A program made the translations under genes and the position numbers. Shown here piece after piece: positions 40,883-54,723 of a stretch of DNA of 54,723 bases. Under the pieces are notes generated by a model. It was not told where the DNA came from. It saw only the letters and a list, made by a program, of their open reading frames with translations, and did not search any database. This DNA is from a virus (Duplodnaviria > Caudoviricetes): positions 1 through 54,723 of IMG/VR virus record IMGVR_UViG_3300047288_000037, one strand, 5' to 3'. The first letter of the stretch is position 1; each line of letters opens with the position of its first letter.

Positions 40883-43738
40883 ATGAACACGCTGGATTTC
40901 TTTCGGCGAGTACTCCCATCTGAGGGGCTATACTGTATAGCCAGCTTTACTAAAGACCATCCTGCACCAAGGCATGGTTTTTTCACCTCAGTAGATGAAC
41001 TCGCAAAGGTGGCTCTTGCGCTTGACGCAAGGGGAAACGCAACATACTACGCTATCGCTGCATATAACGATAAAAAACGTAAGCAGGAATTTGTCAGTAG
41101 CATCCGTGTAATCGCTATGGATGTAGACTGCGGCGAAAACAAACCATATCCAACATACAAGGAAGGCCTACTGGCACTGGGCAAGTTCGTGACTGACTTC
41201 GGTATGCCGAAGCCTATGGTCGTGTTCTCAGGTGGCGGCTTGCATGTGTACTGGATATTAGAAGAAGCACTGGACTATGATACGTGGAAGCCATTGGCAG
41301 AAGCGATGAAGGCCTTAGCCTTGAACAGTGGCTTTATGATTGACCCTGCCGTTACTGGTGACGCGGCGCGAATCTTACGGCCAGTCGGTACGACAAACAA
41401 CAAGAACGGTAATACGGTAAAGTTATTGGTGGATGCACCAAATGTACCGCTCATCTACTTGCGTTCTATACTGGAACAACACAAAGTAATTCCAAAGGCT
41501 CAACCGGTAAGCCAGAGGTCAGCATCCAGCAGTACGTTGTTGGATGCTCTAGCAGTTAAGGTGGAGTTCAATCCATCCAGACCAGACAAAATTTACAACG
41601 CTTGCGCTCAAGTGCAATGGGCTGTGGACAACCAAGATAAAGTAGAAGAACCTACTTGGTATGGTGTGTTAGGTATCGCTGCGTACTGCGAGAACCCTGA
41701 GTATGTAGCCATTGAGTGGAGTAAGAACCATCCCGGCTTTGACCAGCAGAATACCATCGACAAGATGGCTCACTGGAAAGAACAGGTATCAGGACCGACA
41801 ACCTGCAAACGCTTTGCTGAACTCAACTCTGGCCTATGTAAAGGCTGTAAATTCAAAGACAAGATTACCAGCCCAGCTATACTCGGTGTAACTTATGTTG
41901 AAGCTGAGTCAGAGGCTGCCAAGTTTGACCCGATTGCTTCCGATGTGCCAATGCCACGGGCGTTCAAGCGTACCACGGCAGGTATCGTAATCAAGATTGA
42001 GGACAATGAGATTCCAGTATGCTCATTCGACATATACCCAGTGGGCTATGGTAAGGATGAAAGCTTGGGGTATGAAGTTGTACGGTATATGTGGAATAGA
42101 CCACACGTTGGATGGACTGAGTTGGTCTTGCGACAGGCCCATCTGGTTGATAACAGTAGTGAGTTTGGCACTACGATAGCAGACCAAGGCATCGTGCTTG
42201 AGTCGGCATCTAAGACGAAGAATTTTCAAATGCTATTACGTTCATACATGGAAGAATTAAAACAGAGGCGTGGTCTGACCAACCTGTATTCATCTATGGG
42301 TTGGAAGGATGGCTACAATCAATTCATCATAGGCAATACGCTACTGCGCCGTATGCCAGATGGCAGTATATCTCAGGAGTCTGTAAACCTCGCATCATCA
42401 ATAGCCAAAGTTGGTGACCAGATGTATGGTACAGCAGGCTCACGTGATGAGTGGGTTAAGTTCACCAAGATTCTTGAAACAGCCAAGATGACACCACACA
42501 AGTTCTTGCTAGGCTTTAGCTTTGCCACACCACTACTCAAGATGACAGGCATTAAAGGTCTGACACTATCCATCTACGGCGAAACTGGTGCAGGTAAAAC
42601 ACTTGGGCAGTTGATGATGCAATCAGTATGGGGAAACCCAGACCAGCTACACTTCGGTGGTAAGTTCACACAGAATAGTATGTTCGCTAGGCTGTCTACT
42701 CATGGCAATCTACCCATGACTATTGACGAAACCACGATGATGGATGCCGATGAAGTAGGCGATATGCTCTACTGGGTAACACAAGGTAAGGACAAAGGCA
42801 GGTTGGGTCGTGCCGCCGAAGAACGAGCGGCTCGTGAGTTCCAGACTACCGCTACATTATCCACAAACAAATCCATACAAAGTATGCTCTACGCTGGTGG
42901 CAGTGCGTCAGACGCGCAGCTTGCTCGATTGCTTGAGTTTCACATGCCAGTGCATCCACTATTGAGTAAAGGTACGGCAGTTGGTCGCCAGCTGTATATG
43001 TTCCTCATGCACAACTATGGGTGGGCAGGCATTGAGTTCATTAAGAACGTGATGGAGTTGGGTGAGGACAGAGTAAAGGCTATGGTGCAACACGCTATCG
43101 CTGAGTTCCCCACCAGATACGGTGTCGTGTTCTCAGGTAACGAACGCTTCTGGGAAGTAGGTGTAGTGCTTGCCGACTTGGGTAATAGACTAGCCAAAGA
43201 CTTCGGTTTAATCCAGTATGAAGTGGAAGACGCAACCGAGTGGGCACTAGAAGAACTTGTTGGTATCAAGAAAAATGCACTGGCTAACCGTGTTGATGCG
43301 TTCGATTTACTGGGCGAGTTCATCAACGAGCACATGGACTCGGCTATTACCGTGATGCACACCGATGGTCAGAAGCCAATGAAAGATAGCACCAGACCTT
43401 ACGTTGCTGAGATTACAGTACGCTATGACCTGTACCGTAAGACATTCGATGGCAAGTTCACCAGCGGTACGGTGATGATTGAGCGAACCAAACTCAGACG
43501 CTGGTTAGCCAAACGTGGTATTGACTACAAAGGATTCCTCAACGAGTTTGATGCTGAGAACATCAACGCTACACCAAAATCACAGAAGGCATACTTCGGT
43601 AAAGATGTTGGCATTAAAATTCCACAGTGCTATGTGGTAGGCATAAACTTAAACCACCCACGACTACAAGGTATCTTGGACGATGCCGAGCAATCAGTAG
43701 GCGATTTAAGTTTGGGTCAGTTGAAAGCAGTTAGTTAG
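40883..43738 (+). CDS. AEP-type primase fused to a DUF927/SF3-like helicase
   Basis: MDVD, SGGGLHVYW, RILRPVGTTN, Cys cluster (TTC...CKGC), GWK, Walker A GETGAGKT, Walker B IDE. Confidence 0.88.
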   Translation: MNTLDFFRRVLPSEGLYCIASFTKDHPAPRHGFFTSVDELAKVALALDARGNATYYAIAAYNDKKRKQEFVSSIRVIAMDVDCGENKPYPTYKEGLLALGKFVTDFGMPKPMVVFSGGGLHVYWILEEALDYDTWKPLAEAMKALALNSGFMIDPAVTGDAARILRPVGTTNNKNGNTVKLLVDAPNVPLIYLRSILEQHKVIPKAQPVSQRSASSSTLLDALAVKVEFNPSRPDKIYNACAQVQWAVDNQDKVEEPTWYGVLGIAAYCENPEYVAIEWSKNHPGFDQQNTIDKMAHWKEQVSGPTTCKRFAELNSGLCKGCKFKDKITSPAILGVTYVEAESEAAKFDPIASDVPMPRAFKRTTAGIVIKIEDNEIPVCSFDIYPVGYGKDESLGYEVVRYMWNRPHVGWTELVLRQAHLVDNSSEFGTTIADQGIVLESASKTKNFQMLLRSYMEELKQRRGLTNLYSSMGWKDGYNQFIIGNTLLRRMPDGSISQESVNLASSIAKVGDQMYGTAGSRDEWVKFTKILETAKMTPHKFLLGFSFATPLLKMTGIKGLTLSIYGETGAGKTLGQLMMQSVWGNPDQLHFGGKFTQNSMFARLSTHGNLPMTIDETTMMDADEVGDMLYWVTQGKDKGRLGRAAEERAAREFQTTATLSTNKSIQSMLYAGGSASDAQLARLLEFHMPVHPLLSKGTAVGRQLYMFLMHNYGWAGIEFIKNVMELGEDRVKAMVQHAIAEFPTRYGVVFSGNERFWEVGVVLADLGNRLAKDFGLIQYEVEDATEWALEELVGIKKNALANRVDAFDLLGEFINEHMDSAITVMHTDGQKPMKDSTRPYVAEITVRYDLYRKTFDGKFTSGTVMIERTKLRRWLAKRGIDYKGFLNEFDAENINATPKSQKAYFGKDVGIKIPQCYVVGINLNHPRLQGILDDAEQSVGDLSLGQLKAVS

Positions 43739-46700
43739 AAATTTCGAACCCGTACAAGGCGGCTAGTTCTTCGGCCTCTTGTCTACCTGCTCTGGCAGAT
43801 GACTTGAGTGCCCTAGCTGCCAGTGGTTTTGATGCTTCTCTATACGCTCTGTTTACACCACCAGTAAAGTTTCTAATCTCAAGGCGTGTACCTTTAACAT
43901 CGGCATTCCACTCACGAACATATTCTTTTACGTTTGCTAAACGCTCAGAGTCACCATTTAGTCTGGCTGCAACAGCCTCACGGATAGCCTCACTTCTAAT
44001 CATTTGACCATAGCGTTGCTCTTGGCCATCAGCCATCATCCAATCCATCTGTACCTGAGCACGACTTGGGTAGAAGCCTACTGCCTTTCCGATAATTTCC
44101 CACGCAGTTACATCCTGAGAAACTACATAGCCTTTGCTGTCTAAGATTGCACCTGTGTTTGCGTACTTCCATGACTCGGTAGCGTTCTTCAATGCACGAA
44201 CAGGTGCGTCTGTAAGTATCTTGCTGATTGGCTGTCTGCCTGTAATCACAGCAGGGATAGTACCAGTTGCCCACTCAAATGCACCGAGCATGAATGAGGT
44301 TGGAGCACCAGCCAAGTTCTCTACCTCACGCAGTTTTTCCTGAGCAGATGCCGATGGTTTAAACAGGGCAGTACCCGGAACTATATCGCCAAGACCTAAA
44401 CGGTTAGAGAATGACCATCCTGTGGTAGCATCGAGCAAGCCGCGCATCATTACTGGGGTTAGTGCAGCACCCAGTTCATCACCAAATGCACCACGAGTCA
44501 GACGAGCAAATTCTTTCTCTACTGAGCCGGACTGTAATCCTAGACGCTGCATCAAGCCATCAATAATATCCAGCAAGTCGTCAGCACCGGGCAGACCGCG
44601 TAAGCCTGACAAAAGAATCAATGAACCTAGCATGATAATCTGGCCGTTACGGTCCATGTTCTTGAGCAGTTGCAGCATGATGATTGGATACTGCTTGTAC
44701 ATATACACGAAAGACATTAGACCACCACGGAAGAACGCAGGGCGGTTGTACTGTGAGTAGTCACCTTGAGTAGCATCGAGGGCTTTGTCAGCGGCGTTAC
44801 GTGCAGCATCATCGGCTTTCATTGGGCTTACACCAGCAGCAATCTGGCGTTCATATTCACCACGATAGGCAGCAAGTACAGTTACACGGCGGTTAAACTG
44901 CTCTGAGTAACTGAACGGGAACATCCATGTCTGAACAAATTTCTGGAAGGTTGGGTTACCCATGAAGCCTTTGCGCCCACGCACTGTACCAGTCAGTGCA
45001 TTGAACTGAGCAGCATCCAAGCGTTGTTCTTCGGTTAAGTCTTTCAGGAATCGTAACTCACCAGCAGTTAATCCATCTTTGCTCTCAGTTGCACCAGTGC
45101 GTTCAAGTTCATCTAGCTGTGCCTGTAAGAAGTCTACATTGATGTACTTAGGATTGGCGGCAGATATAGCGAACTTGGATAGCAGTGCACCAGCACGACC
45201 AGCACCGAGGCCCAGACCGAAGTTGTTCTCTGGGTTGTATGATGACAGGTATGCCCATGAGTTGGTAGGCAGTGACAGCATCTGCGTAATACCGGTAGCG
45301 ATAGAACCACCAAGTTGTGCTACCGCAGCCCAAGTACGTGCGCTCAGTGAGAACTGGTTGTTGTTCCAGAAGTCATCGGCAAACACAATGTCACCAGTAG
45401 AATCTTGCCAGTCAAGTTGTGACTTAGCGCGTTCTTTGTACCAGTTACCACGTAATACGTTAGTGTCACCAACTTTCTCATTGGCTTTTTCAAAGTAAAA
45501 TTTTTCTTGGAAGTACTCACGCGCTGCCAGTTCTTTAGCTGGGCCAGTAGCGGCTTCCCACTTGGCTTTAAGTTCTGCCAGCTTATCACGGTCACCGAAC
45601 CAGTTGCGGTTATCTTCCAGCACACCATCGAACTGGTGACGGAATGTTTTGTTCGCTGCGACATATGCCTGCTGCTCTAGGAATGCAGATGAACTACGGA
45701 CAACATCTTTATCCCAGCCCGGCACACCTGCACGTTGCAAGTTAGCACGAGCCCTAGAGTTCTGGGCAGTAACTTTCTTAATCAAAATCTCACGGTCAGC
45801 CACTGGCATCTGAACACCCAAGCGGCTCAAAGCGTACATAACATCATCGTAGTGCATGATGTCTACCAGTGCTGGTGTAGTTTCTACGTCACTGACGATG
45901 GCTTTCAAGTACACTGGAACCACGCGGTTGTTAGCATCTCGCATGGTGTACTCACCAGTCAGCAGGCCGTTTAACTCCTCAGCATATCCAATGGATTCAT
46001 CTTTCTTCTCAGTCATGAACAGCGGTAAGGAATCCTGCTGCCCTTGATGCAGCTTAACTGGCTCCTCATTACCATCAGCGTCAATAGTGTATGCCTGCAC
46101 ACGAACTTGGAATTTGCCTCGGCGAGATAGGGGGGCATAGCCACCGGCAATACTGCGCTTGGCGTATAGTGAGTCATCATTCAATGAGATGGTGAACGTA
46201 CTGCGTTCTTCCATGGCGTAAGCCACAGGCCAGATTGATGAGTCGGTGATGGCATCTGTATCAGGGTCAATCTTCACGCGCAGTTTATCACGCAGACCAG
46301 TAACCAAAGTCTTAACTTCGTCAGGAGTGTAGTTAGGTAGCTTGGTTGCGAAGTCATTAAGCGCGTTGTCATTGTAGAATGAACGGGCAAAGCGCATCTC
46401 AACATAATCCACAGCGTCAGCCTGAGATACCTCATTCATCTTGAATCGGTTGTTCTCGTAGGATGCACCCTCCATAGCGATACGGTCATACTCATCGGAT
46501 ACGGCTGTGATGAAGCGGCGTTCAGCTTCGGTCAGGGTTTTCTTAAATGCCCGGTCAATACCACGGTTGAGTACACGTTCTTGCTCATACATAGCACCAG
46601 CATACTTGGCATTCAGAACATCCATCTGGCTCTCATTGATAGCTTCACGGAACTGCAAGTACATTTTGTACTGGATACTATCTTCGGTCAGGTCTTTAGC

Positions 46701-49700
46701 CCATGCGAAGTCAGCCATGTCTTTGGTGTTCACATAGTTCGGTGCGCTGTATGTATTGCTATCAAGTTGTTTCTTGTAGTTCAGCTTAGTGCTGCGAAGC
46801 ATAGAGTCGAACTTATCTTCGGTCTTATCGTATGTAGCCTGTAATGAAGTCTTGACCTTGGCATCCTTAGCACCATCAATCTTACGTTTAATACGGTCAA
46901 GGTCACGTTTCTTACGGGCTTCAATCGTTGCAACTTCTTGGTCGCGCTCAGCTTCCAGTTGCTTTCTATACTCGTCAGTCATTGGCTTCTCAGTGAAGCC
47001 CATCTGAACATCAAAGCCTTTCTTGAAATCTTCCACTGACAATGTACCAGCTTTAGCAAGGGACTCGAACGCATCAGGGTTTACAATGATTTGGCCCAAC
47101 TCAGTGGAGTATGCGATAGGGGCTTCAAACTTAGATTGCAGCTGTGTATCCGTGAACTGGTTACCTTTAAGCAATGAACCTAAGGCCAGTAACTGTCCAG
47201 CCTGTTGTGATTCCATTGGCTCAGGACCATCACCGAACATCAAGAACTTAGCTTCATGTGCAAGCTGTGTCAGCTTAGAATACTTTGTCTTAAGTTTCTG
47301 CTGCATCTCACCTTTACGTTGGGTAAGACTGAAAACCAATGACGCACCCTTACTATCACGAGCCATGTCATCCTGAGTACGCAGGAGCCCAAAGAAGTTC
47401 TTCATTGTATCCTTGGCGTTTACTTTCGACCCGTCATACTTGCGGCGCAAGTCTGCAACTTTGGTGTCGTTGTTGTTCAACCAGTTCATAATGCCTTCTA
47501 AACCACCAGTTGTAGTCACGTTTTGGTTCATGGCGTTCATGGCAGCGGTTTGCTGGCCCTGTGGCGCGAGTTGGGCAAATCTTAATACCTCGACATCAGA
47601 CTGTTCGAGTTCTCGCATTGTAGCCGCTTCCTGCAAGAGAGTTTTTAGGTTGACTTCTGAACGACCCACACCTTGACGTACGTACTTGCGTGATAGGCTG
47701 ACTAAGTAGCGAGCAGCGTCATCGTTGAACTTAAAGCCGAGTTTGTTCAACTGGTTTTTCATCCAAGTCCAGAATCTCATCATGGTTGATGAGTCGATTG
47801 CAGCTGCGCGGTCAGACAGAACTTCTTCCACAGCTTCCAAGAACGGAATGTTCTGTGCTTCTGACAGAACTACTGCTGCGTTGTTAACCTGCACATCTGA
47901 GTCGGCGATTGACTGCAAGATTTTATTTAGCTGAGCATCACTGAACAACCCACGGAAACCTACGTGACCCAGAATCTCATGAGCCATGATGAAGTTAGCG
48001 TGTTTCTCACCGTTGATATTGTCAGCGAACAGAACGACTGTGTTGCCCCATGCCATACCAGCAGCATTGACAGCTTCAAAGTCACCAGCCTTACGAGCAG
48101 CGGCAGCTTCTCTAAACAACTTGGGGTTTGCTTTACGCATGTCATCCAGATTCTGGAATACATGCAGCTTAGGTTTACGTGCCAGCTTAGATACGAACTT
48201 GTTAGCCATCAGACGGAGCGCACCAGCCTTCATTGGCTGACTTGCCTTCTCATCGACACGGTAATAGTTAGCCAGACCACCTAGAATATTATCGTCTTCT
48301 TGGACACCAGACTCCTGCTGGAATTTAAGTTCCAGTGCGGTACGTTGTTCTTCCTCAGCGGCTTCCAGTTCAATGTCACGCAGCTCTTTACGGGCTGCGG
48401 CATGGGCCTTGGCAAATTCTTCACGTGATACTTTGGCTTCTTCTACGCTAGACAAAACGTACTTGTTAGTACCCGGCTTCTGAACTACGATTGGTTTACC
48501 ATCTTTGAAGAAGTCCTCAATGGAACCACGCTCGCCAACTACAAAGGCAGCATCTTCCACTTGCTTGAATAAAGCTTCGGCCTTAGCAGTCAGTTGCTTC
48601 TTGTTAATCCAGCCTTCACGGTTGTTGATGAGGTCTGCCAGCTGAATAGCTGCGCGGTCAATTTCTTCAGGTGCTTGTTCAGCTTCCGTAACTGCGGCTG
48701 TAATATCCTCATCCTTCTTAGTGGATACACGAACACCAATCTTAGGGTCTGTCAGCAAGTTGTAGTCGTTCAGCAGTTTATACAGGCGTGACCGTGGGTT
48801 GATGCTAGGCATAGTGATAGCGAATGCACGTAGTGCCTTAGTGAACTCAGCCACAGGGATAGGCTCTGCGCCAAACAGGAACTCATTGGCTGTTTTAAAT
48901 AGCTTGGTCGCCTGATTTGTTTCAGTCACATAGACATCAACAATCTCATTCATAGCGATTGCATAGTCTTTAGGTGAACTGGTAGTTTCGACAGTATCAA
49001 TGGCTGCTTCAAGTGCCTGCTGTGCGTCTAGTGTTTCCTGTGACGCTTCGCCTGACTTTTTTTCCTTCTCCTGCGCTGGAGCTGTGACCTGAGCGACTAA
49101 CGATGCTAAAGATGTTTGTGGTACTTGAGCCGGTGTAGCCTGAGCTTTAGGTGCTTTAAGACGCTGCTCACCTACCGGTGCGGCAGGTGTAGCTTTAGTC
49201 GTTTCAACTTTAGGTTCTTTTTTCAGCGTGGCTTTACCAGTTGGTTTAGGCGGTGTTGGCTCTGGTGGTTTAATACCACCGATACGGTCAGCCTCAGCCA
49301 TAGAAGCTTTCTTGTCTTCTACTAAATCAGTCCACTCTTTACGCTGGGCATCAGTCAGCTTCTCCCATGTTGGTGCTTTAGGGTCACGCTTTTCACGCCA
49401 CTGGGTACGCGCATCGCGCTCTACTGCTAGACGCGCAGCCTTAGCTTCCTGTACTGCAATTACATCTTGTAGACTTTTTCCTTGCTTTTCTTGCGTGGCT
49501 TTTGCACCTTCTCTGGTAGCTTGGCGGAGCTTGGCGTCTTGTCCTCGTACTCCTTCGCCAGTTCCGGTTTGTTTGCGTACATCCACTTGCGCTGTGCTTG
49601 GCTCTTGAACGGCATTTGGTTTCTCCTTCGCTTTGAGTTTAGCAGTAGTGGTTTTCTTAGCCAGTGCTTTAGCCACCGTAGCAGGTGTGACAACACGACC

Positions 49701-51881
49701 TGTCGGAGGTATCTGACTACCACCTACTTCTGGGATAGAACGGTATGGCTGTTTAGTTCCGGCAGAACGCAGGGCAGCCATTGTCGGTTCACCTTCTTGG
49801 GTGAACAATGACAGCTGTCTACCACGGCGTAAGTCAACCTTAGGCGCAGCCACAACAACAGGGGCTTTCTGCTGCGGTGCAGGAATGCCACGGCGTACGC
49901 GCTCACGCATTGATGGTTTAGGTGCTTGCCCACGACCAAACAGTTGTAATTGCTGTGGGTTTGGCGCACGAGTTTCGCGCATAGGCAGCGGAGCTACGGG
50001 TTCAGGTGCAGGCTGTGCCAAGTCTAACTGACGTTGGTTCTGCGCCACGATTGCAAGGCGGTTAAGCTCTGCCTGACGTTGTTGTTCCTGTGCAATTTGT
50101 TGCTGCTCAATAGCTTTAGCCACTTCAGCCTGCTGCATAGCCAGTTCCATCTGGGTAACTGGTGCATTGACCGGTGTTGGTGCAGGCGGTGGAGGTGCGA
50201 ACTGTAGTTGACCTTGGCCCGGAATCTCAGCTGGCTGTTCACCAAGGTATGGAATACCAATCGGGTTAACCAATGTACTACGTTGCTGCAACTCTGCAAT
50301 GGTTGCACCTTCAGGACCAAAGATGTCGAGTACGCCTTGTTGTCCAAACTGACCGGGTGCTACTTCACCTGCAAAAATCGTATCGCTAGGGCGTGATGGT
50401 CGAGTTGTACCGTCAGGTGCGGTAATCATATCAGGGCGACCCATCATGCCACCGGTAGTGACAGGACCTTGAGGTACACCTGCTGGAGGTTCAGTAATTG
50501 TGAGTGCTGTGCTAGGTTCTGGTGATTGCTCTGGGTTCAGCAAGTTAGTAGGCTGGTCACCTACTGGAGTCTTACCCTTACGCAGATTGGCAATACCACC
50601 CAAAGGGCTGCCTACACCGAAGCCTGCGGCAAATGATTCAAGTAATCGCTTCTGAGCTTCTGGGCTAGACAAATCCTGACCAGATAAACCGAGAACCAAG
50701 GCTTCTTGGCCTGCTTCAGTAGCACCCTCAAGTGGACCACCAACAATAGCACCAGTAGCACCACGTTTAAGTAACTCGCCTGCGCGTTTAGCACCAGTAC
50801 CTAATGCTGTCTTACCTTGGATGGATGCTAAGTCTGTACCTGTACCTTTAATGCCGCCAAAGATACGTGAAGCTAAAACAAATTCAGGTAAGGTTTCCAG
50901 TGCAGCGTACGGTAAAGACCCGGCAAGTGCAGCTAGTCTGGCACTTGCATCGTCAGCAGGTACACCCTGCTCGCGCATCTCACCATAAATATCAGCAGCA
51001 CCAGTGGCAATATTACTACCATAAGACGCAGCCAACGCCCCGGCGGTACCGGCAGCAGTACGCAACAACTTGCTTTCCGCAGCGTCAAGAGCTTCACCCG
51101 CAGCTTTTTTCTTGGCAGCAGCTAAGATAGCCTGCTTGGTTGCAGACTTACCCAAGATACCGGCGACACCAGCATACAACCCTGCCGCTGGACCACCTAC
51201 CGCAGTACCGGCACCAAAGCCAGCAACACCGACAGCTAATGATTCAAGCAGGTTAGGACCTTGTTGCGCCAAGTTAGCCACGAACCAATCGACAGCGTCA
51301 CCGCCTGACTGAATGTTTGAGAACTCACGTACAAACGGTGCAGACTTCTGAATGTCACGAACTTGCTGGTCAACGATTGCCTGCCCAGTTTGCTCAGCAC
51401 CTAGAAGTTGCAAGCCTCTGCCTGCAAGCAGCTGCATATTGTCGACACCGATGCCGAAGTTCTTCCTAGCCAGACGCCCAAGACTTGGATTGCGGATGGA
51501 ATTTATATACTGACTGTATGCGTTCTGGTCTATCGGAGTCCAGTTACCAGTGGTAGGTAAACCAACAGACGGATAGGACAGGTACTGCTCAGATTGTAGA
51601 GCAGTAGTAGCATCGTCAGCGTCAAAAGTAATGCCGTTAACATAGAGCTTGTTCTCCGTTGCATTAAAGGCAATAGCCGGAGCCTGCTTTAACTCCGGCA
51701 TTGTGAACTGACTTTGCTTGACGATTTGCTGCCCAACGGCAGCCATGTCTGCTAAAGATGGGGCTAACCCATTCAACCCTATATCTGACGTAGGGCTGTT
51801 AATCGCATATGGATTAGCCTCAGGCCCTAGGTTAGATTTCGCCAGAAACGGGTCAGCAAACGAAAGACCTTCTTTAGCCAT
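43731..51881 (-). CDS. Giant ejection / polyvalent protein (2716 aa)
   Basis: Gly/Ala membrane-type helices near the N-terminus, disordered P/Q/K linker, zincin HEILGH, PLxRFG-like YAPLSRRG, C-terminal helical region (EQFNR, TQGDYS, F..MYKQYP). Confidence 0.85.
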   Translation of the reverse strand: MAKEGLSFADPFLAKSNLGPEANPYAINSPTSDIGLNGLAPSLADMAAVGQQIVKQSQFTMPELKQAPAIAFNATENKLYVNGITFDADDATTALQSEQYLSYPSVGLPTTGNWTPIDQNAYSQYINSIRNPSLGRLARKNFGIGVDNMQLLAGRGLQLLGAEQTGQAIVDQQVRDIQKSAPFVREFSNIQSGGDAVDWFVANLAQQGPNLLESLAVGVAGFGAGTAVGGPAAGLYAGVAGILGKSATKQAILAAAKKKAAGEALDAAESKLLRTAAGTAGALAASYGSNIATGAADIYGEMREQGVPADDASARLAALAGSLPYAALETLPEFVLASRIFGGIKGTGTDLASIQGKTALGTGAKRAGELLKRGATGAIVGGPLEGATEAGQEALVLGLSGQDLSSPEAQKRLLESFAAGFGVGSPLGGIANLRKGKTPVGDQPTNLLNPEQSPEPSTALTITEPPAGVPQGPVTTGGMMGRPDMITAPDGTTRPSRPSDTIFAGEVAPGQFGQQGVLDIFGPEGATIAELQQRSTLVNPIGIPYLGEQPAEIPGQGQLQFAPPPPAPTPVNAPVTQMELAMQQAEVAKAIEQQQIAQEQQRQAELNRLAIVAQNQRQLDLAQPAPEPVAPLPMRETRAPNPQQLQLFGRGQAPKPSMRERVRRGIPAPQQKAPVVVAAPKVDLRRGRQLSLFTQEGEPTMAALRSAGTKQPYRSIPEVGGSQIPPTGRVVTPATVAKALAKKTTTAKLKAKEKPNAVQEPSTAQVDVRKQTGTGEGVRGQDAKLRQATREGAKATQEKQGKSLQDVIAVQEAKAARLAVERDARTQWREKRDPKAPTWEKLTDAQRKEWTDLVEDKKASMAEADRIGGIKPPEPTPPKPTGKATLKKEPKVETTKATPAAPVGEQRLKAPKAQATPAQVPQTSLASLVAQVTAPAQEKEKKSGEASQETLDAQQALEAAIDTVETTSSPKDYAIAMNEIVDVYVTETNQATKLFKTANEFLFGAEPIPVAEFTKALRAFAITMPSINPRSRLYKLLNDYNLLTDPKIGVRVSTKKDEDITAAVTEAEQAPEEIDRAAIQLADLINNREGWINKKQLTAKAEALFKQVEDAAFVVGERGSIEDFFKDGKPIVVQKPGTNKYVLSSVEEAKVSREEFAKAHAAARKELRDIELEAAEEEQRTALELKFQQESGVQEDDNILGGLANYYRVDEKASQPMKAGALRLMANKFVSKLARKPKLHVFQNLDDMRKANPKLFREAAAARKAGDFEAVNAAGMAWGNTVVLFADNINGEKHANFIMAHEILGHVGFRGLFSDAQLNKILQSIADSDVQVNNAAVVLSEAQNIPFLEAVEEVLSDRAAAIDSSTMMRFWTWMKNQLNKLGFKFNDDAARYLVSLSRKYVRQGVGRSEVNLKTLLQEAATMRELEQSDVEVLRFAQLAPQGQQTAAMNAMNQNVTTTGGLEGIMNWLNNNDTKVADLRRKYDGSKVNAKDTMKNFFGLLRTQDDMARDSKGASLVFSLTQRKGEMQQKLKTKYSKLTQLAHEAKFLMFGDGPEPMESQQAGQLLALGSLLKGNQFTDTQLQSKFEAPIAYSTELGQIIVNPDAFESLAKAGTLSVEDFKKGFDVQMGFTEKPMTDEYRKQLEAERDQEVATIEARKKRDLDRIKRKIDGAKDAKVKTSLQATYDKTEDKFDSMLRSTKLNYKKQLDSNTYSAPNYVNTKDMADFAWAKDLTEDSIQYKMYLQFREAINESQMDVLNAKYAGAMYEQERVLNRGIDRAFKKTLTEAERRFITAVSDEYDRIAMEGASYENNRFKMNEVSQADAVDYVEMRFARSFYNDNALNDFATKLPNYTPDEVKTLVTGLRDKLRVKIDPDTDAITDSSIWPVAYAMEERSTFTISLNDDSLYAKRSIAGGYAPLSRRGKFQVRVQAYTIDADGNEEPVKLHQGQQDSLPLFMTEKKDESIGYAEELNGLLTGEYTMRDANNRVVPVYLKAIVSDVETTPALVDIMHYDDVMYALSRLGVQMPVADREILIKKVTAQNSRARANLQRAGVPGWDKDVVRSSSAFLEQQAYVAANKTFRHQFDGVLEDNRNWFGDRDKLAELKAKWEAATGPAKELAAREYFQEKFYFEKANEKVGDTNVLRGNWYKERAKSQLDWQDSTGDIVFADDFWNNNQFSLSARTWAAVAQLGGSIATGITQMLSLPTNSWAYLSSYNPENNFGLGLGAGRAGALLSKFAISAANPKYINVDFLQAQLDELERTGATESKDGLTAGELRFLKDLTEEQRLDAAQFNALTGTVRGRKGFMGNPTFQKFVQTWMFPFSYSEQFNRRVTVLAAYRGEYERQIAAGVSPMKADDAARNAADKALDATQGDYSQYNRPAFFRGGLMSFVYMYKQYPIIMLQLLKNMDRNGQIIMLGSLILLSGLRGLPGADDLLDIIDGLMQRLGLQSGSVEKEFARLTRGAFGDELGAALTPVMMRGLLDATTGWSFSNRLGLGDIVPGTALFKPSASAQEKLREVENLAGAPTSFMLGAFEWATGTIPAVITGRQPISKILTDAPVRALKNATESWKYANTGAILDSKGYVVSQDVTAWEIIGKAVGFYPSRAQVQMDWMMADGQEQRYGQMIRSEAIREAVAARLNGDSERLANVKEYVREWNADVKGTRLEIRNFTGGVNRAYREASKPLAARALKSSARAGRQEAEELAALYGFEISN
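49460..49615 (-). CDS. Nested 51-aa basic protein in the +1 frame of the giant gene
   Basis: AAGGAG (49628-49623) 7 nt before ATG; MPFKSQAQRKWMYANKPELAKEYEDKTP... Confidence 0.65.
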   Translation of the reverse strand: MPFKSQAQRKWMYANKPELAKEYEDKTPSSAKLPEKVQKPRKKSKEKVYKM

Positions 51882-51893
51882 AACTACCTCACT

Positions 51894-53717
51894 TTATATT
51901 GTACCTTTTGCCCAACTCAAAGATGGAAGGTTTGCGATTGGATGAGCACCTCTTGATTCTATTTTAACACCATCAATCTCAATAGTGGTAGGCGTTGGGT
52001 TATAGTAGAATATATCGGTTGAACCAGCTGGTTTAATAAACACCCCACCATCGGCAGCACCAGAAGGTTTGACTTCCAATCCATACTTAGCTTTAGCCAT
52101 CTCTTGGTTAATTGTGTTTTGGCCTTTGATGCCTTCAACAGTAACATCAGCAATCATCTTAGCATAAGCCTTGGCATTTTCCTTCATGATGTCTAGGCTG
52201 GTATCCAGACGTTTCATTGAGGCTTCGCTAGATACTTGAGCCATAATCTGACGGTAACCACTATCGAACGAACGGCGTGATAAGTCTGAAACCTCATCAA
52301 CACCAATACCTTCCTTGGTCATAGTGCCATTCACAAACACGTTGTACGTACCATCAGTTCGTGGCTGGAATGCAATCGGTGTACCTGCATAGTGGCTTGC
52401 CACAGCAGACAAGCGGCGTGGGTCATTAGCCAAAGCCAAATCTTGTAGGCCCTGCATACCTTGTAGGTAGAACATACCCTCATCAAGTTCGATGATTTTG
52501 TTGCGTAATTCCATGTACTGCATACCCATACCAGAACGCTGATACATACCAGCTAGTCGGGTCAGTTCATCACGCTGACGTAAGGCACGTTGCATATCAC
52601 CACCGATTGCCTCAGGGTTTGCCAGATAGAAGTCAGATACCTTTTTCTGCACCGCTGGTGTTGGTGGTTTGGTATCGGCTACCTTAACAATCTGACCATC
52701 AGGCGTGATTGGCACGTTCTTGATTACAGATGGTTGTTCGCCACCAGCAAGTGACAATGTCTTAGTTACATAGTCACGTGTTTCTTTAGGCAGCTTGGTC
52801 ATGTCGCCACCAGCAGCCAGCCACTTATCAGTAGCTGTCGGGCCCATATTATAGGCAATCAGTTGTAGTGTCTGATTGTTACCATACTTCTGTGCCATAG
52901 CCAGTGAATACATATTGCCGTACTCGGCACCAACCTCAGGCATCTTCAGTAGCGCAGCCGCTGTATTAGCATCACGCTTACCTACTTGGATGCCCTTAGA
53001 TGCAGCAAAGTCAAACACGTTAGGTAATCCGAAGCCGGGGTCCATTGCAGTTTCAGGCATAACTTGCATCAAACCTGTTGCACCTTTAGGACTTACAGCC
53101 GTAGTCTTACCACCACTTTCAACTTGTTGCTGAGCAGCTAACAATTTTTGTTGGTCGACTGTACCAGCAGAAGGTTTACCCTTGAGTGCATCGAGTTTCT
53201 TCTGTTCAGCTGACATAATCGCTGATTGTTGCGTCATAATGTTTGACGGGGCTAGACCGCCACGCAGTGCATCTGGGGATACTTTGTCCACATAACTGCC
53301 TTTAGTCGTAGATATTGCGTACGGACTTTTTGGCACAGCCACAGGTGGGGTAGTTGGCATCTTCGCTGCATCTTGCTGACGCAAGTAGTTCAGTGCTGCT
53401 AAGTCTTGGTTAGTAACCGCAGGCTTTTGTGCTGCCGGTGCTGGTTGCACTGCTGGTTGAATTGGTGCAGTAATTTGCGGCGCAGCTACTGGAGCTACAG
53501 GCACTTGTTGTACATCAGGCCTAGCAAATTGACCCATCAGGTCAGGAGTCTGCGGCATTGGAGCCTGAGTCATTTCCTGACGTAATCGGTTAAGGCGATT
53601 CTGTTCTTCAATCTTTAGCTGGTTCTGCTGGGCTACGCGCTGCGCTTCTTCTTCCTGACGCCACCCTGCACCGACCCGCCCAGCACTGCTGAGAACTTGT
53701 CCTAGTGTTAGATTCAT
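51894..53717 (-). CDS. Ejection protein with a lytic transglycosylase (SLT) domain
   Basis: QVESGG, AVSPKGATGLMQVMP, AYNMGP and ETRDYV motifs. Confidence 0.88.
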   Translation of the reverse strand: MNLTLGQVLSSAGRVGAGWRQEEEAQRVAQQNQLKIEEQNRLNRLRQEMTQAPMPQTPDLMGQFARPDVQQVPVAPVAAPQITAPIQPAVQPAPAAQKPAVTNQDLAALNYLRQQDAAKMPTTPPVAVPKSPYAISTTKGSYVDKVSPDALRGGLAPSNIMTQQSAIMSAEQKKLDALKGKPSAGTVDQQKLLAAQQQVESGGKTTAVSPKGATGLMQVMPETAMDPGFGLPNVFDFAASKGIQVGKRDANTAAALLKMPEVGAEYGNMYSLAMAQKYGNNQTLQLIAYNMGPTATDKWLAAGGDMTKLPKETRDYVTKTLSLAGGEQPSVIKNVPITPDGQIVKVADTKPPTPAVQKKVSDFYLANPEAIGGDMQRALRQRDELTRLAGMYQRSGMGMQYMELRNKIIELDEGMFYLQGMQGLQDLALANDPRRLSAVASHYAGTPIAFQPRTDGTYNVFVNGTMTKEGIGVDEVSDLSRRSFDSGYRQIMAQVSSEASMKRLDTSLDIMKENAKAYAKMIADVTVEGIKGQNTINQEMAKAKYGLEVKPSGAADGGVFIKPAGSTDIFYYNPTPTTIEIDGVKIESRGAHPIANLPSLSWAKGTI

Positions 53718-53727
53718 GACTTACTCC

Positions 53728-54723
53728 TTAACCGATAGATGCGGCTCGTGACGGACCTGTTAGTGAACCAAATAGCGTACCAATATCTTCGGCTGCTTTA
53801 CGGCGTTGTTCTTCAGCCTTAGCTAATGTAGCCTCGTAACCACTGCCATACGTGCCGTATGTATTTGGGCCTGCGGTTGGTAAAGCTGTTAGGCCTGCTT
53901 GCGTAGTAGCCAGTTTGTTTTGCTGTGCAGTTGTTGCACCTTGCAGGTACGCTGTTTCACCACGAGTAGCAGCTTCAAGATTGTATCTACGTTGTTCCGC
54001 AGTACGCAGACCACCACGTTGTGGAGCTATCTCACGTAGATTTTCTTGAGCCTGACGACCAATACCTGTGGTTACACTACGTTGAGCCATCAGGCCGAAG
54101 TAGTTAGGGTCAAAGTATTTAGCCTCGCCAAGTAACGCAGTAGCTTCGCGCAGACGTTGTTCGAACAGAGCTCGATTGGTCATCTGAAGTTGTGCAAGTT
54201 CAGCTTTCTGTTGTTTAACCAGTTCTTCCTGCTCTGGGGATAATCCGTTACCAGCAGTGAGTGAGCCAGCCAGTTGACCAGCAGCACGAAGTACCAAGTC
54301 AGCTTGCATTTTAGGGTCAGATACCTTCTGCTTGAGAGCTTCCCATGCAGATGTAGGTTGTTGCGGCGCAGCAGCCTGAGCAGTTGCAGCAGCTTGTTGG
54401 GCCGCCGGTGTAACCTGAACACCAGCTTGTTGGTACGCAGGTGCAGTCTGTGGAGCGAAGGTCTGTGCTGCCTGAGCGGATTGCGGTACGTTCGGATTAT
54501 AGAACTGCGTAGTTCCCAGATTGGAAGCACTACCACCCATAGCATTAGGCAGGTTAACTGACAAGCCACCAGATGTAGATAAGGCGTTAGCCAGTGATTG
54601 CGTTTGCTGTGCTACGTCAGCACCGGATGACAGGATGTTAGCCAGCTGTGAGTTAGAAACTGCGCCACCATATGCAACTTGAGAAGCATCAACCACAGCA
54701 CCAGCACTAGGTCCATTCATCAC
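53728..54723 (-). CDS. C-terminal part of the first ejection protein (joined to 1..546)
   Basis: Open to the window edge; A/Q/G-rich; in frame with 1..546 after collapsing the 9-nt overlap. Confidence 0.85.
   Translation of the reverse strand: MMNGPSAGAVVDASQVAYGGAVSNSQLANILSSGADVAQQTQSLANALSTSGGLSVNLPNAMGGSASNLGTTQFYNPNVPQSAQAAQTFAPQTAPAYQQAGVQVTPAAQQAAATAQAAAPQQPTSAWEALKQKVSDPKMQADLVLRAAGQLAGSLTAGNGLSPEQEELVKQQKAELAQLQMTNRALFEQRLREATALLGEAKYFDPNYFGLMAQRSVTTGIGRQAQENLREIAPQRGGLRTAEQRRYNLEAATRGETAYLQGATTAQQNKLATTQAGLTALPTAGPNTYGTYGSGYEATLAKAEEQRRKAAEDIGTLFGSLTGPSRAASIG

Follow-up and report, generated by a model that had tools for sequence, protein, structure and literature searches.

Can a short open reading frame (ORF) lying out of frame inside the gene for a giant virion protein be a gene in its own right, and if so, which of the two readings came first? 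This question is raised by the minus strand of the IMG/VR virus record IMGVR_UViG_3300047288_000037, whose full 54,723 bases (GC content 0.46) constitute the window analyzed here and whose DNA is present in freshwater metagenomes. Within the gene for a 2716-amino-acid protein, the segment from 49615 to 49460 on the minus strand holds a 51-codon ORF in the +1 frame relative to the host ORF, preceded by a Shine-Dalgarno (SD)-like motif. The comparisons presented below argue that this segment is very probably a real gene, under selection and independently translated, that is nested in the +1 frame within a giant virion-protein gene. The features on which the argument turns are as follows.

43731..51881, minus strand: host gene, encoding the 2716-amino-acid giant protein (from the ORF, a phrog_11358 match and the neighbor context)
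49002..49721, minus strand: low-complexity linker of the giant (amino acids 721-960) that bears the nested gene (from residue composition and from flanks that cannot be aligned among relatives)
49623..49628, minus strand: SD-like AAGGAG, separated by the 7-nucleotide spacer AAACCAA from the nested ATG and lying inside the giant ORF (direct reading)
49613..49615, minus strand: nested ATG start, which begins at base 2 of host codon Asn756 (49616-49614)
49514..49615, minus strand: conserved module, codons 1-34, MPFKSQAQRKWMYANKPELAKEYEDKTPSSAKLP, with two short predicted helices and a TP..KLP motif
49463..49513, minus strand: basic tail, codons 35-51, EKVQKPRKKSKEKVYKM, rich in lysine and arginine
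49460..49462, minus strand: nested TAA stop (direct reading)

This layout had been described in an initial annotation as AAGGAG followed by seven bases and an ATG that opens 51 codons within Asn756, and these elements, as well as both translations quoted there, were confirmed exactly. Across the nested ORF, the host frame spells KEKPNAVQEPSTAQVDVRKQTGTGEGVRGQD. The small frame stays open upstream as far as a GTG at 49723 (87 amino acids), and the start of the protein family described below is always the Met of MPFKS. The length of the nested ORF is unremarkable, since the same giant gene holds five same-strand, alternative-frame ATG ORFs of at least 51 codons; ORFs of at least 40 amino acids that overlap 46000-54723 number 55. 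That the nested gene is real and not a chance open frame is instead indicated by homology far beyond chance and by the recurrence of the same arrangement in many uncultured phages. A scan of 49300-50100 for promoters and terminators found none, and blastn of 48800-50300 against GenBank phages returned no match. RNA sequencing runs contained hardly any of the analyzed DNA (shares of 0.00-0.06).

The homology is to phrog_1375 (PHROGs v4, function unknown), which matches residues 3-47 of the nested product with an E value of 2.8e-5. When the whole 54.7-kb genome was scanned in six frames with phrog_1375, the nested ORF was the single match (E 1.9e-7). We also built a non-circular hidden Markov model (HMM) from 35 stand-alone homologues only, and this model matched the nested ORF over profile positions 1-44 of 46 (E 1.6e-22, 76.6 bits), with the next-best six-frame segment of the window at E 0.28. 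A search of 5.8 billion proteins yielded 74 matching proteins of 33-68 amino acids, with E values down to 1e-11 and identities of 54-90%. The window's own nested ORF was absent among the protein database matches; lying out of frame inside a giant gene, the nested form is missed by gene finders. The family profile retrieved 4174 representatives at E values of 1e-3 or less, 741 of them at 1e-10 or less, from 1.84 billion cluster representatives. The stand-alone small basic phage proteins with this N terminus that the initial annotation had described thus exist in large numbers, both as close relatives and across the wider family.

In an alignment of 43 sequences, M1, P2, F3, K4, S5, Q8, and A20 are invariant, and the window's ORF has all seven and also retains all eight nearly invariant columns. 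All family members carry a lysine/arginine-rich tail that varies in length and sequence. Of the 150 best representatives (proteins of 45-575 amino acids), 131 align to the family from residues 1-3 onward and none from a point beyond residue 39, and in longer relatives (97-958 amino acids), the module stands at the extreme N terminus with varied, mostly unknown C-terminal parts behind it. Since the match is always at the start of a protein and never in frame in the interior of a long one, the family is a small protein that doubles as an N-terminal module. When ten long fused forms were scanned against Pfam and PHROGs, the matches were confined to DUF5661 (in two of the ten), the phrog_1375 module, and a weakly matching glycine zipper, while Pfam gave no match at an E value of 1 or less for the nested product or any of the 43 aligned members. 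By these profile matches, the nested product is a full-length member of the very large phrog_1375, or MPFKS, family of small, strongly basic phage proteins. It has in common with hundreds of stand-alone members the invariant MPFKS N terminus, the two short helices, the TP..KLP motif, and the basic tail, and differs from them in being nested out of frame in a giant gene.

To what extent does this arrangement recur? Scanning IMG/VR with the alignment of the family gave matches to at least 600 stretches, at least 382 of which encode a relative, and the best 80 loci were analyzed. In 37 of these, the small gene is nested in a same-strand open frame of at least 500 amino acids (701-3135 amino acids, many of them cut by the 6-kb flanks), and in another four it is nested in an open frame of 172-403 amino acids; it is free-standing in 38 and forms the N terminus of an ORF of more than 1000 amino acids in one. 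The frame relation of the small gene to its host is +1 in every nested locus, as it is in the window. Nested starts lie 83-1098 residues into the host, mostly 500-1100, and the nested homologues reach a stop after 42-98 codons. The initial annotation had suggested inspecting the +1 frame in relatives, and there the ATG, the stop, and the family residues were found to be retained. It had also claimed that a host-frame motif NA(V/I)Q..S recurs in giant proteins, which is borne out by the presence of [DN]A[IVLF]Q in 33 of 33 deduplicated nested loci, the window included.

The hosts are far less uniform than the gene they carry. BLASTP with the window's giant finds 5 of 35 other giants, and single-linkage clustering divided the giants into group A (25 members, GC content 0.32-0.51), group B (eight, one of them from the window), two that pair together, and one on its own. 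When the profiles of the group A and group B giants were compared with each other, no homology was detected (probability 3% or less), a result that extreme divergence would also fit. As judged by these comparisons, the hosts of nested genes constitute at least two groups without detectable mutual similarity. A different layout was observed at locus L011 (1175-6174), where a free copy starts on the stop codon of a 1608-amino-acid ORF that shares 40% identity with a group A giant over its first 500 residues; this layout is possibly an intermediate or an alternative between the nested and free forms.

We subsequently compared codon positions in the two frames. With the +1 offset, the third position of a small-frame codon (s3) is the first position of a host codon (h1), and the second position (s2) is the host wobble position (h3). 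In 33 deduplicated nested genes compared over their first 28 codons, the pairwise differences at s1, s2, and s3 were 0.253, 0.175, and 0.384, and the same differences in free genes were 0.322, 0.222, and 0.610. For these codons of the nested genes, the small frame had an amino acid identity of 0.70, compared to 0.48 for the host frame. In host-frame codon alignments, the diversity of the host wobble position was 0.62-0.75 in the flanks and only 0.15 (group A) or 0.22 (group B) in the first 30 nested codons, where it fell below the h1 diversity of 0.35 (group A) or 0.39 (group B). Within this island, host amino acid identity was 0.46-0.54, compared to 0.14-0.27 in the flanks. That the position expected to be silent in the host is the most constrained is predicted by selection on the small frame and is the opposite of what selection on the host peptide would produce. 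The frame-specific comparison that the initial annotation had proposed thus favors the small frame (s3 > s1 > s2), and the codon pattern indicates that this frame is under purifying selection. Its suggestion that a 'conserved motif' of the giants is the shadow of a nested gene likewise agrees with an island in which the host wobble position is the best conserved of all.

Conservation of this kind might also be produced by a nucleic-acid element, either an RNA structure or a protein-binding DNA site, that is under selection in place of a protein. Such an element would account for an island of nucleotide conservation in a variable linker and for the short contigs of other organisms that match 49557-49617 only. 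It would not account for the codon periodicity in the small frame, for free homologues that differ at 61% of s3 sites with the protein kept, or for similarity at the protein level across phages with GC contents of 0.32 to 0.64, and we consider it highly improbable.

Strain-level variation in the window's own lineage provides a further view of the two frames. Contigs from four metagenomes (four studies) were compared over 48900-50300, and the counts given here are among the 40 variants listed. Outside the nested ORF, 32 of the 34 variants are host-synonymous, which marks the giant ORF as genuinely coding, and in a single frame, to either side of the nested gene. Inside it, a single variant of the six is host-synonymous and the other five change a host residue (Fisher p 1.8e-4). 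All six fall in small-frame codons 26-30, where two are synonymous (codons 26 and 27) and four are changes (codons 28-30) at positions that are variable in the family, and codons 1-25 carry no listed variant. This pattern is supportive of selection on the small frame, if incomplete.

These data bear directly on the reverse explanation, in which the peptide [DN]A[IV]Q..S...VDV is a functional element of the giant and the +1 ORF is its accidental shadow. The host frame is indeed open, with purifying selection in its flanks, and its motif is recognizable in all of the deduplicated nested loci. However, a selected host peptide would not be expected to have its wobble position as the most conserved, to be less conserved than the small-frame protein, or to tolerate residue changes at five of the six listed variant sites in the overlap. 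Moreover, the 38 free loci retain the small protein while their host frame is interrupted by many stops. An accidental ORF over a functional host peptide is thus hardly credible, and we return to the reading of the small frame as the selected one.

If the nested gene is independently translated, signals for initiation should be associated with its start. We scored a motif as SD-like if GGAG, GAGG, or AGGA occurred at -17 to -4 of the nested ATG. Such a motif precedes 10 of 10 deduplicated nested starts outside group A; its background frequency in the corresponding giant ORFs is 8.4% of positions (binomial p 1.8e-11). The SD, whose conservation in relatives the initial annotation had proposed to examine, is thus conserved in all 10 nested loci from SD-using genomes. 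None of the 23 group A nested starts has one; these are preceded by an A-rich leader, with an A fraction of 0.59 vs 0.36 in the giant ORF. Long ORFs carry an SD in 41 of 85 cases in loci outside group A and in 2 of 57 in group A loci. Judging from these leaders, the nested genes bear start signals typical of their own genomes. The small protein would then be produced by internal initiation on the mRNA of the giant gene at the nested gene's own SD and ATG, or, in the low-GC group that does not use SD, at the A-rich leader.

A second route to the small frame would be frameshifting, either by a slip from the giant into the small frame or by initiation at the nested start followed by a -1 slip back, which would yield a C-terminal fragment of the giant tagged with MPFKS. 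The geometry allows for this, as ribosomes leaving the small frame by a -1 shift would enter that of the giant; in addition, long proteins elsewhere bear the module as an N-terminal tag, and the basic tails are A-rich. Entry by frameshift is opposed by the invariance of the Met itself and by stops in the small frame: in 19 of 33 nested genes, one lies within five codons upstream of the ATG (immediately adjacent to it in two), too close for a shift into the complete module. Against exit, canonical X_XXY_YYZ heptamers in the small frame are found in none of the 33 nested genes (the window included) and in 11 of 33 free genes (Fisher p 3.6e-4), and a programmed -1 frameshift site was rejected as a candidate on this basis. 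A frameshift product is therefore a poor prospect. The heptamers are missing from the nested ORFs despite lysine-rich tails similar to those of the free ones, in loci that are not independent, and their absence may reflect selection against slipping between two used frames.

The start signals also speak to whether the small gene is a relic, swallowed by the giant ORF and no longer expressed, with its family likeness merely residual. The lower s3 diversity of nested compared to free genes could mean recent common descent, as this explanation would have it. The flanks, however, are saturated in both giant groups, and yet the island retains its ATG, its stop, the family-invariant residues, and the s3 > s1 > s2 order; in so fast-evolving a linker, a dead relic should have decayed. 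The SD is retained throughout the nested loci outside group A, whose genomes use SD, and the strain changes in the overlap spare codons 1-25 and alter host residues. A silent relic accordingly seems about as improbable as a frameshift product. Independent translation of a selected nested gene remains the preferred reading, and the interpretation offered in the initial annotation is supported in all parts that could be tested.

Several points weigh against this reading. The nested form was not found in cultured phages: tblastn of the window's 51-mer and a group A homologue against 50,697 GenBank phage records recovered only free or distant relatives. The nested loci are mutually related, and counts such as 10/10 or 0/33 are not independent events. 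A tree of 68 small proteins (40 columns) needs nine changes between the nested and free states, has only two well-supported branches, and does not separate one origin from several. Because the flank alignments are saturated, the flank 'diversity' lies near the random expectation and is not a calibrated rate. The lower s3 diversity in nested (0.384) than in free genes (0.610) could be due to an added host-frame constraint or simply to closer kinship, and the strain result rests on the variants listed, from contigs that drop rare variants. As for function, the distant relative in Streptomyces phage FlowerPower sits between small genes annotated 'peptidase' and 'holin', the relative in Prochlorococcus phage P-RSP2 lies in a region of small hypothetical genes, and Pfam, PDB, and fold searches found no functional clues beyond gene context, the fused C-terminal partners being mostly unknown.

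Which of the two readings is the older? The small gene probably predates the linker that overlaps it, as far as can be judged from the distribution of the sequences. On this account, the small gene would be the older partner, the giant's disordered linker would have come to read through a pre-existing gene in another frame, and the giant's 'NAVQ..S' motif would be a mere shadow of the small gene. This is the simplest reading given that the family is more widely spread and better conserved than its hosts and always starts a protein, and that the overlapped segment is the least order-prone. In the linker (amino acids 721-960), the fraction of order-promoting residues is 0.15-0.17, compared to 0.20-0.43 elsewhere in the giant, and P, A, K, E, Q, and T together make up 0.62-0.72; the claim of the initial annotation that the host segment sits in a disordered linker therefore held, this segment being the least order-prone stretch of the giant. 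From the far wider spread of the free and N-terminal forms, we infer that the small gene was absorbed into the giant together with its ribosome-binding site.

Embedded out-of-frame genes are known in phages, the classic cases being Rz1 inside Rz of lambda (+1) and B in A and E in D of phiX174, and in these the embedded gene is interpreted as a new one that arose de novo by overprinting of an older gene. Like them, the present locus has a small gene contained entirely within a longer same-strand gene, in a different frame and behind a putative ribosome-binding site of its own. In contrast to them, free relatives of the embedded gene here number in the thousands, its conservation exceeds that of the host segment, and the host is a virion protein of 1500-3100 amino acids. 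Given the many free relatives and the better conservation of the embedded gene, the host linker is probably the younger reading. A spanin (Rz1-like lipoprotein) was considered for the 51-amino-acid product and rejected, as the product has no cysteine and no hydrophobic N terminus.

An embedded gene that is apparently older than the host reading is the reverse of textbook overprinting and provides a natural model of how one gene's ORF can grow to span a second gene. Embedded out-of-frame genes as such being already known, what is probably new is a nested gene that is conserved, recurs widely, and probably predates the reading in which it is embedded. Few same-strand overlapping genes of double-stranded DNA phages have comparative support this strong, and both the family and the nested arrangement recur widely. 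We found no report of this family or of the nested arrangement in the literature outside most subscription journals. For annotation, the implication is that a 'conserved motif' of giant virion proteins would be a frame shadow and that gene callers miss the nested form and often the free form too, as in three GenBank phages.

The giant host is probably a virion-internal or ejection protein by its sequence matches and context. Its amino acids 1913-2671 match phrog_11358 (function unknown), a Pfam scan of the giant protein found no family, and the upstream neighbor at 51894-53717 has lytic-transglycosylase and internal-virion-protein matches.

The small protein itself was modeled by AlphaFold2 with the family alignment, which predicted helices at residues 6-15 and 17-26, with a predicted local distance difference test (pLDDT) score of 91-95 over residues 1-20, and with the basic tail extended behind them. 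Neither PDB sequence searches nor Foldseek with the small protein gave a meaningful match, and matches in BFVD were to uncharacterized family members only. The mean net charge is +13.8 for the nested small proteins and -9.3 for the host frame of the same DNA (n=33). A modeled complex of the small protein with the window's portal protein scored 0.01. Among the free copies, one follows a portal gene (L009), another precedes a major head protein gene (L053), and that of Synechococcus phage S-CBS2 lies in the structural module.

Phage internal proteins of the T4 internal protein (IP) type have N-terminal capsid-targeting sequences, and small basic internal or DNA-binding head proteins are also known. 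By analogy, the MPFKS module may be compared with the T4 IP-type targeting sequences in that it stands at the extreme N terminus, either alone or before varied parts, and with both kinds of protein in that the genes lie in head or internal-virion modules and the products carry a high positive net charge. It differs from them in that the nested protein has no sequence or fold similarity to any solved protein and in that some distant relatives lie outside structural modules. We tentatively propose, as one possibility among others, that the nested product is a virion-associated basic protein whose invariant free N terminus and two-helix hairpin would serve in docking or targeting of the protein or a fused cargo, with nesting tying its expression to that of the giant. 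Binding to DNA, or to the giant's acidic linker, would be the task of the basic tail, and nesting would ensure co-expression of the small protein with the giant. The initial annotation had suggested that the product might be a DNA-condensing or chaperone partner.

A more elaborate proposal, and a somewhat more doubtful one, is that the widespread MPFKS module is a docking or packaging tag for virion-internal phage proteins which, in a minimal form with a DNA-binding basic tail, was captured at least twice by unrelated giant ejection genes, whose disordered linkers then evolved by reading across the older small gene in the -1 frame ('reverse overprinting') to give an acidic/basic pair with obligate co-expression. 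If this were true, a large share of uncultured podovirus-like phages would carry a conserved virion component that gene callers systematically overlook.

Free members of 34-40 amino acids were observed in unannotated gaps of three GenBank phage genomes: C75C1 (OQ984151.1; L001, 3001-3105), S-CBS2 (GU936714.1; L002, 3001-3111), and P-RSP2 (HQ332139.1; L003, 3001-3123). FlowerPower gene 48 (L087, 4001-4219), annotated as hypothetical, encodes the distant relative in that phage, a basic protein of 72 amino acids that starts with MPYKS and has an alanine/lysine-rich tail. A language-model lead pointed to Pfam DUF3008 (PF11450), with a score of 0.83 (carried by 15% of the members of the nearest cluster that has a Pfam family), and was rejected given that there is no Pfam match at an E value of 1 or less; DUF3008 likewise comprises small viral and bacterial proteins, and on present evidence, the nested product is not a member.

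The strain contigs yielded several further observations. The stretch from 49539 to 49760 (222 bases, comprising codons 1-25 and 145 bases upstream of the ATG) contains no variant among the variants listed, whereas host-synonymous variants in the neighboring DNA are spaced about 20-40 bases apart; the promoter scan gave no candidate site there. In one contig from run X5 (depth 3.6), the 57 bases directly 3' of the nested stop (49404-49460) are replaced by 12 others, which keeps the host in frame (45 bases shorter) and places the edge of the replacement at the end of the nested ORF. In this single low-depth contig, the linker tolerates indels right up to the border of the nested gene. Several of the short contigs of other organisms come from run X4 and one from run X6; they are 80-90% identical to the window over their matching segment and differ from it on either side, the likeness ending no more than two bases from the nested ATG. 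Presumably, these contigs are from other carriers of the family.

Mid-giant, at 47964-47981 (amino acids 1301-1306), there is a HEILGH motif, which we take to be HExxH-like, as in zinc metallopeptidases; Pfam gave no family for the giant. By terminase, the closest cultured relative of the window is Pseudomonas phage Rollin (43.5% identity), in which the small-protein family had no match in the 21 kb scanned. The Rollin giant gene (L086, 6453-13007; OR577172.1, 15452-22006) encodes 2184 amino acids with weak C-terminal similarity to the window's giant. Despite its location in the structural region, it is annotated as 'oligopeptide ABC transporter, periplasmic oligopeptide-binding protein OppA', which looks like a mis-annotation.

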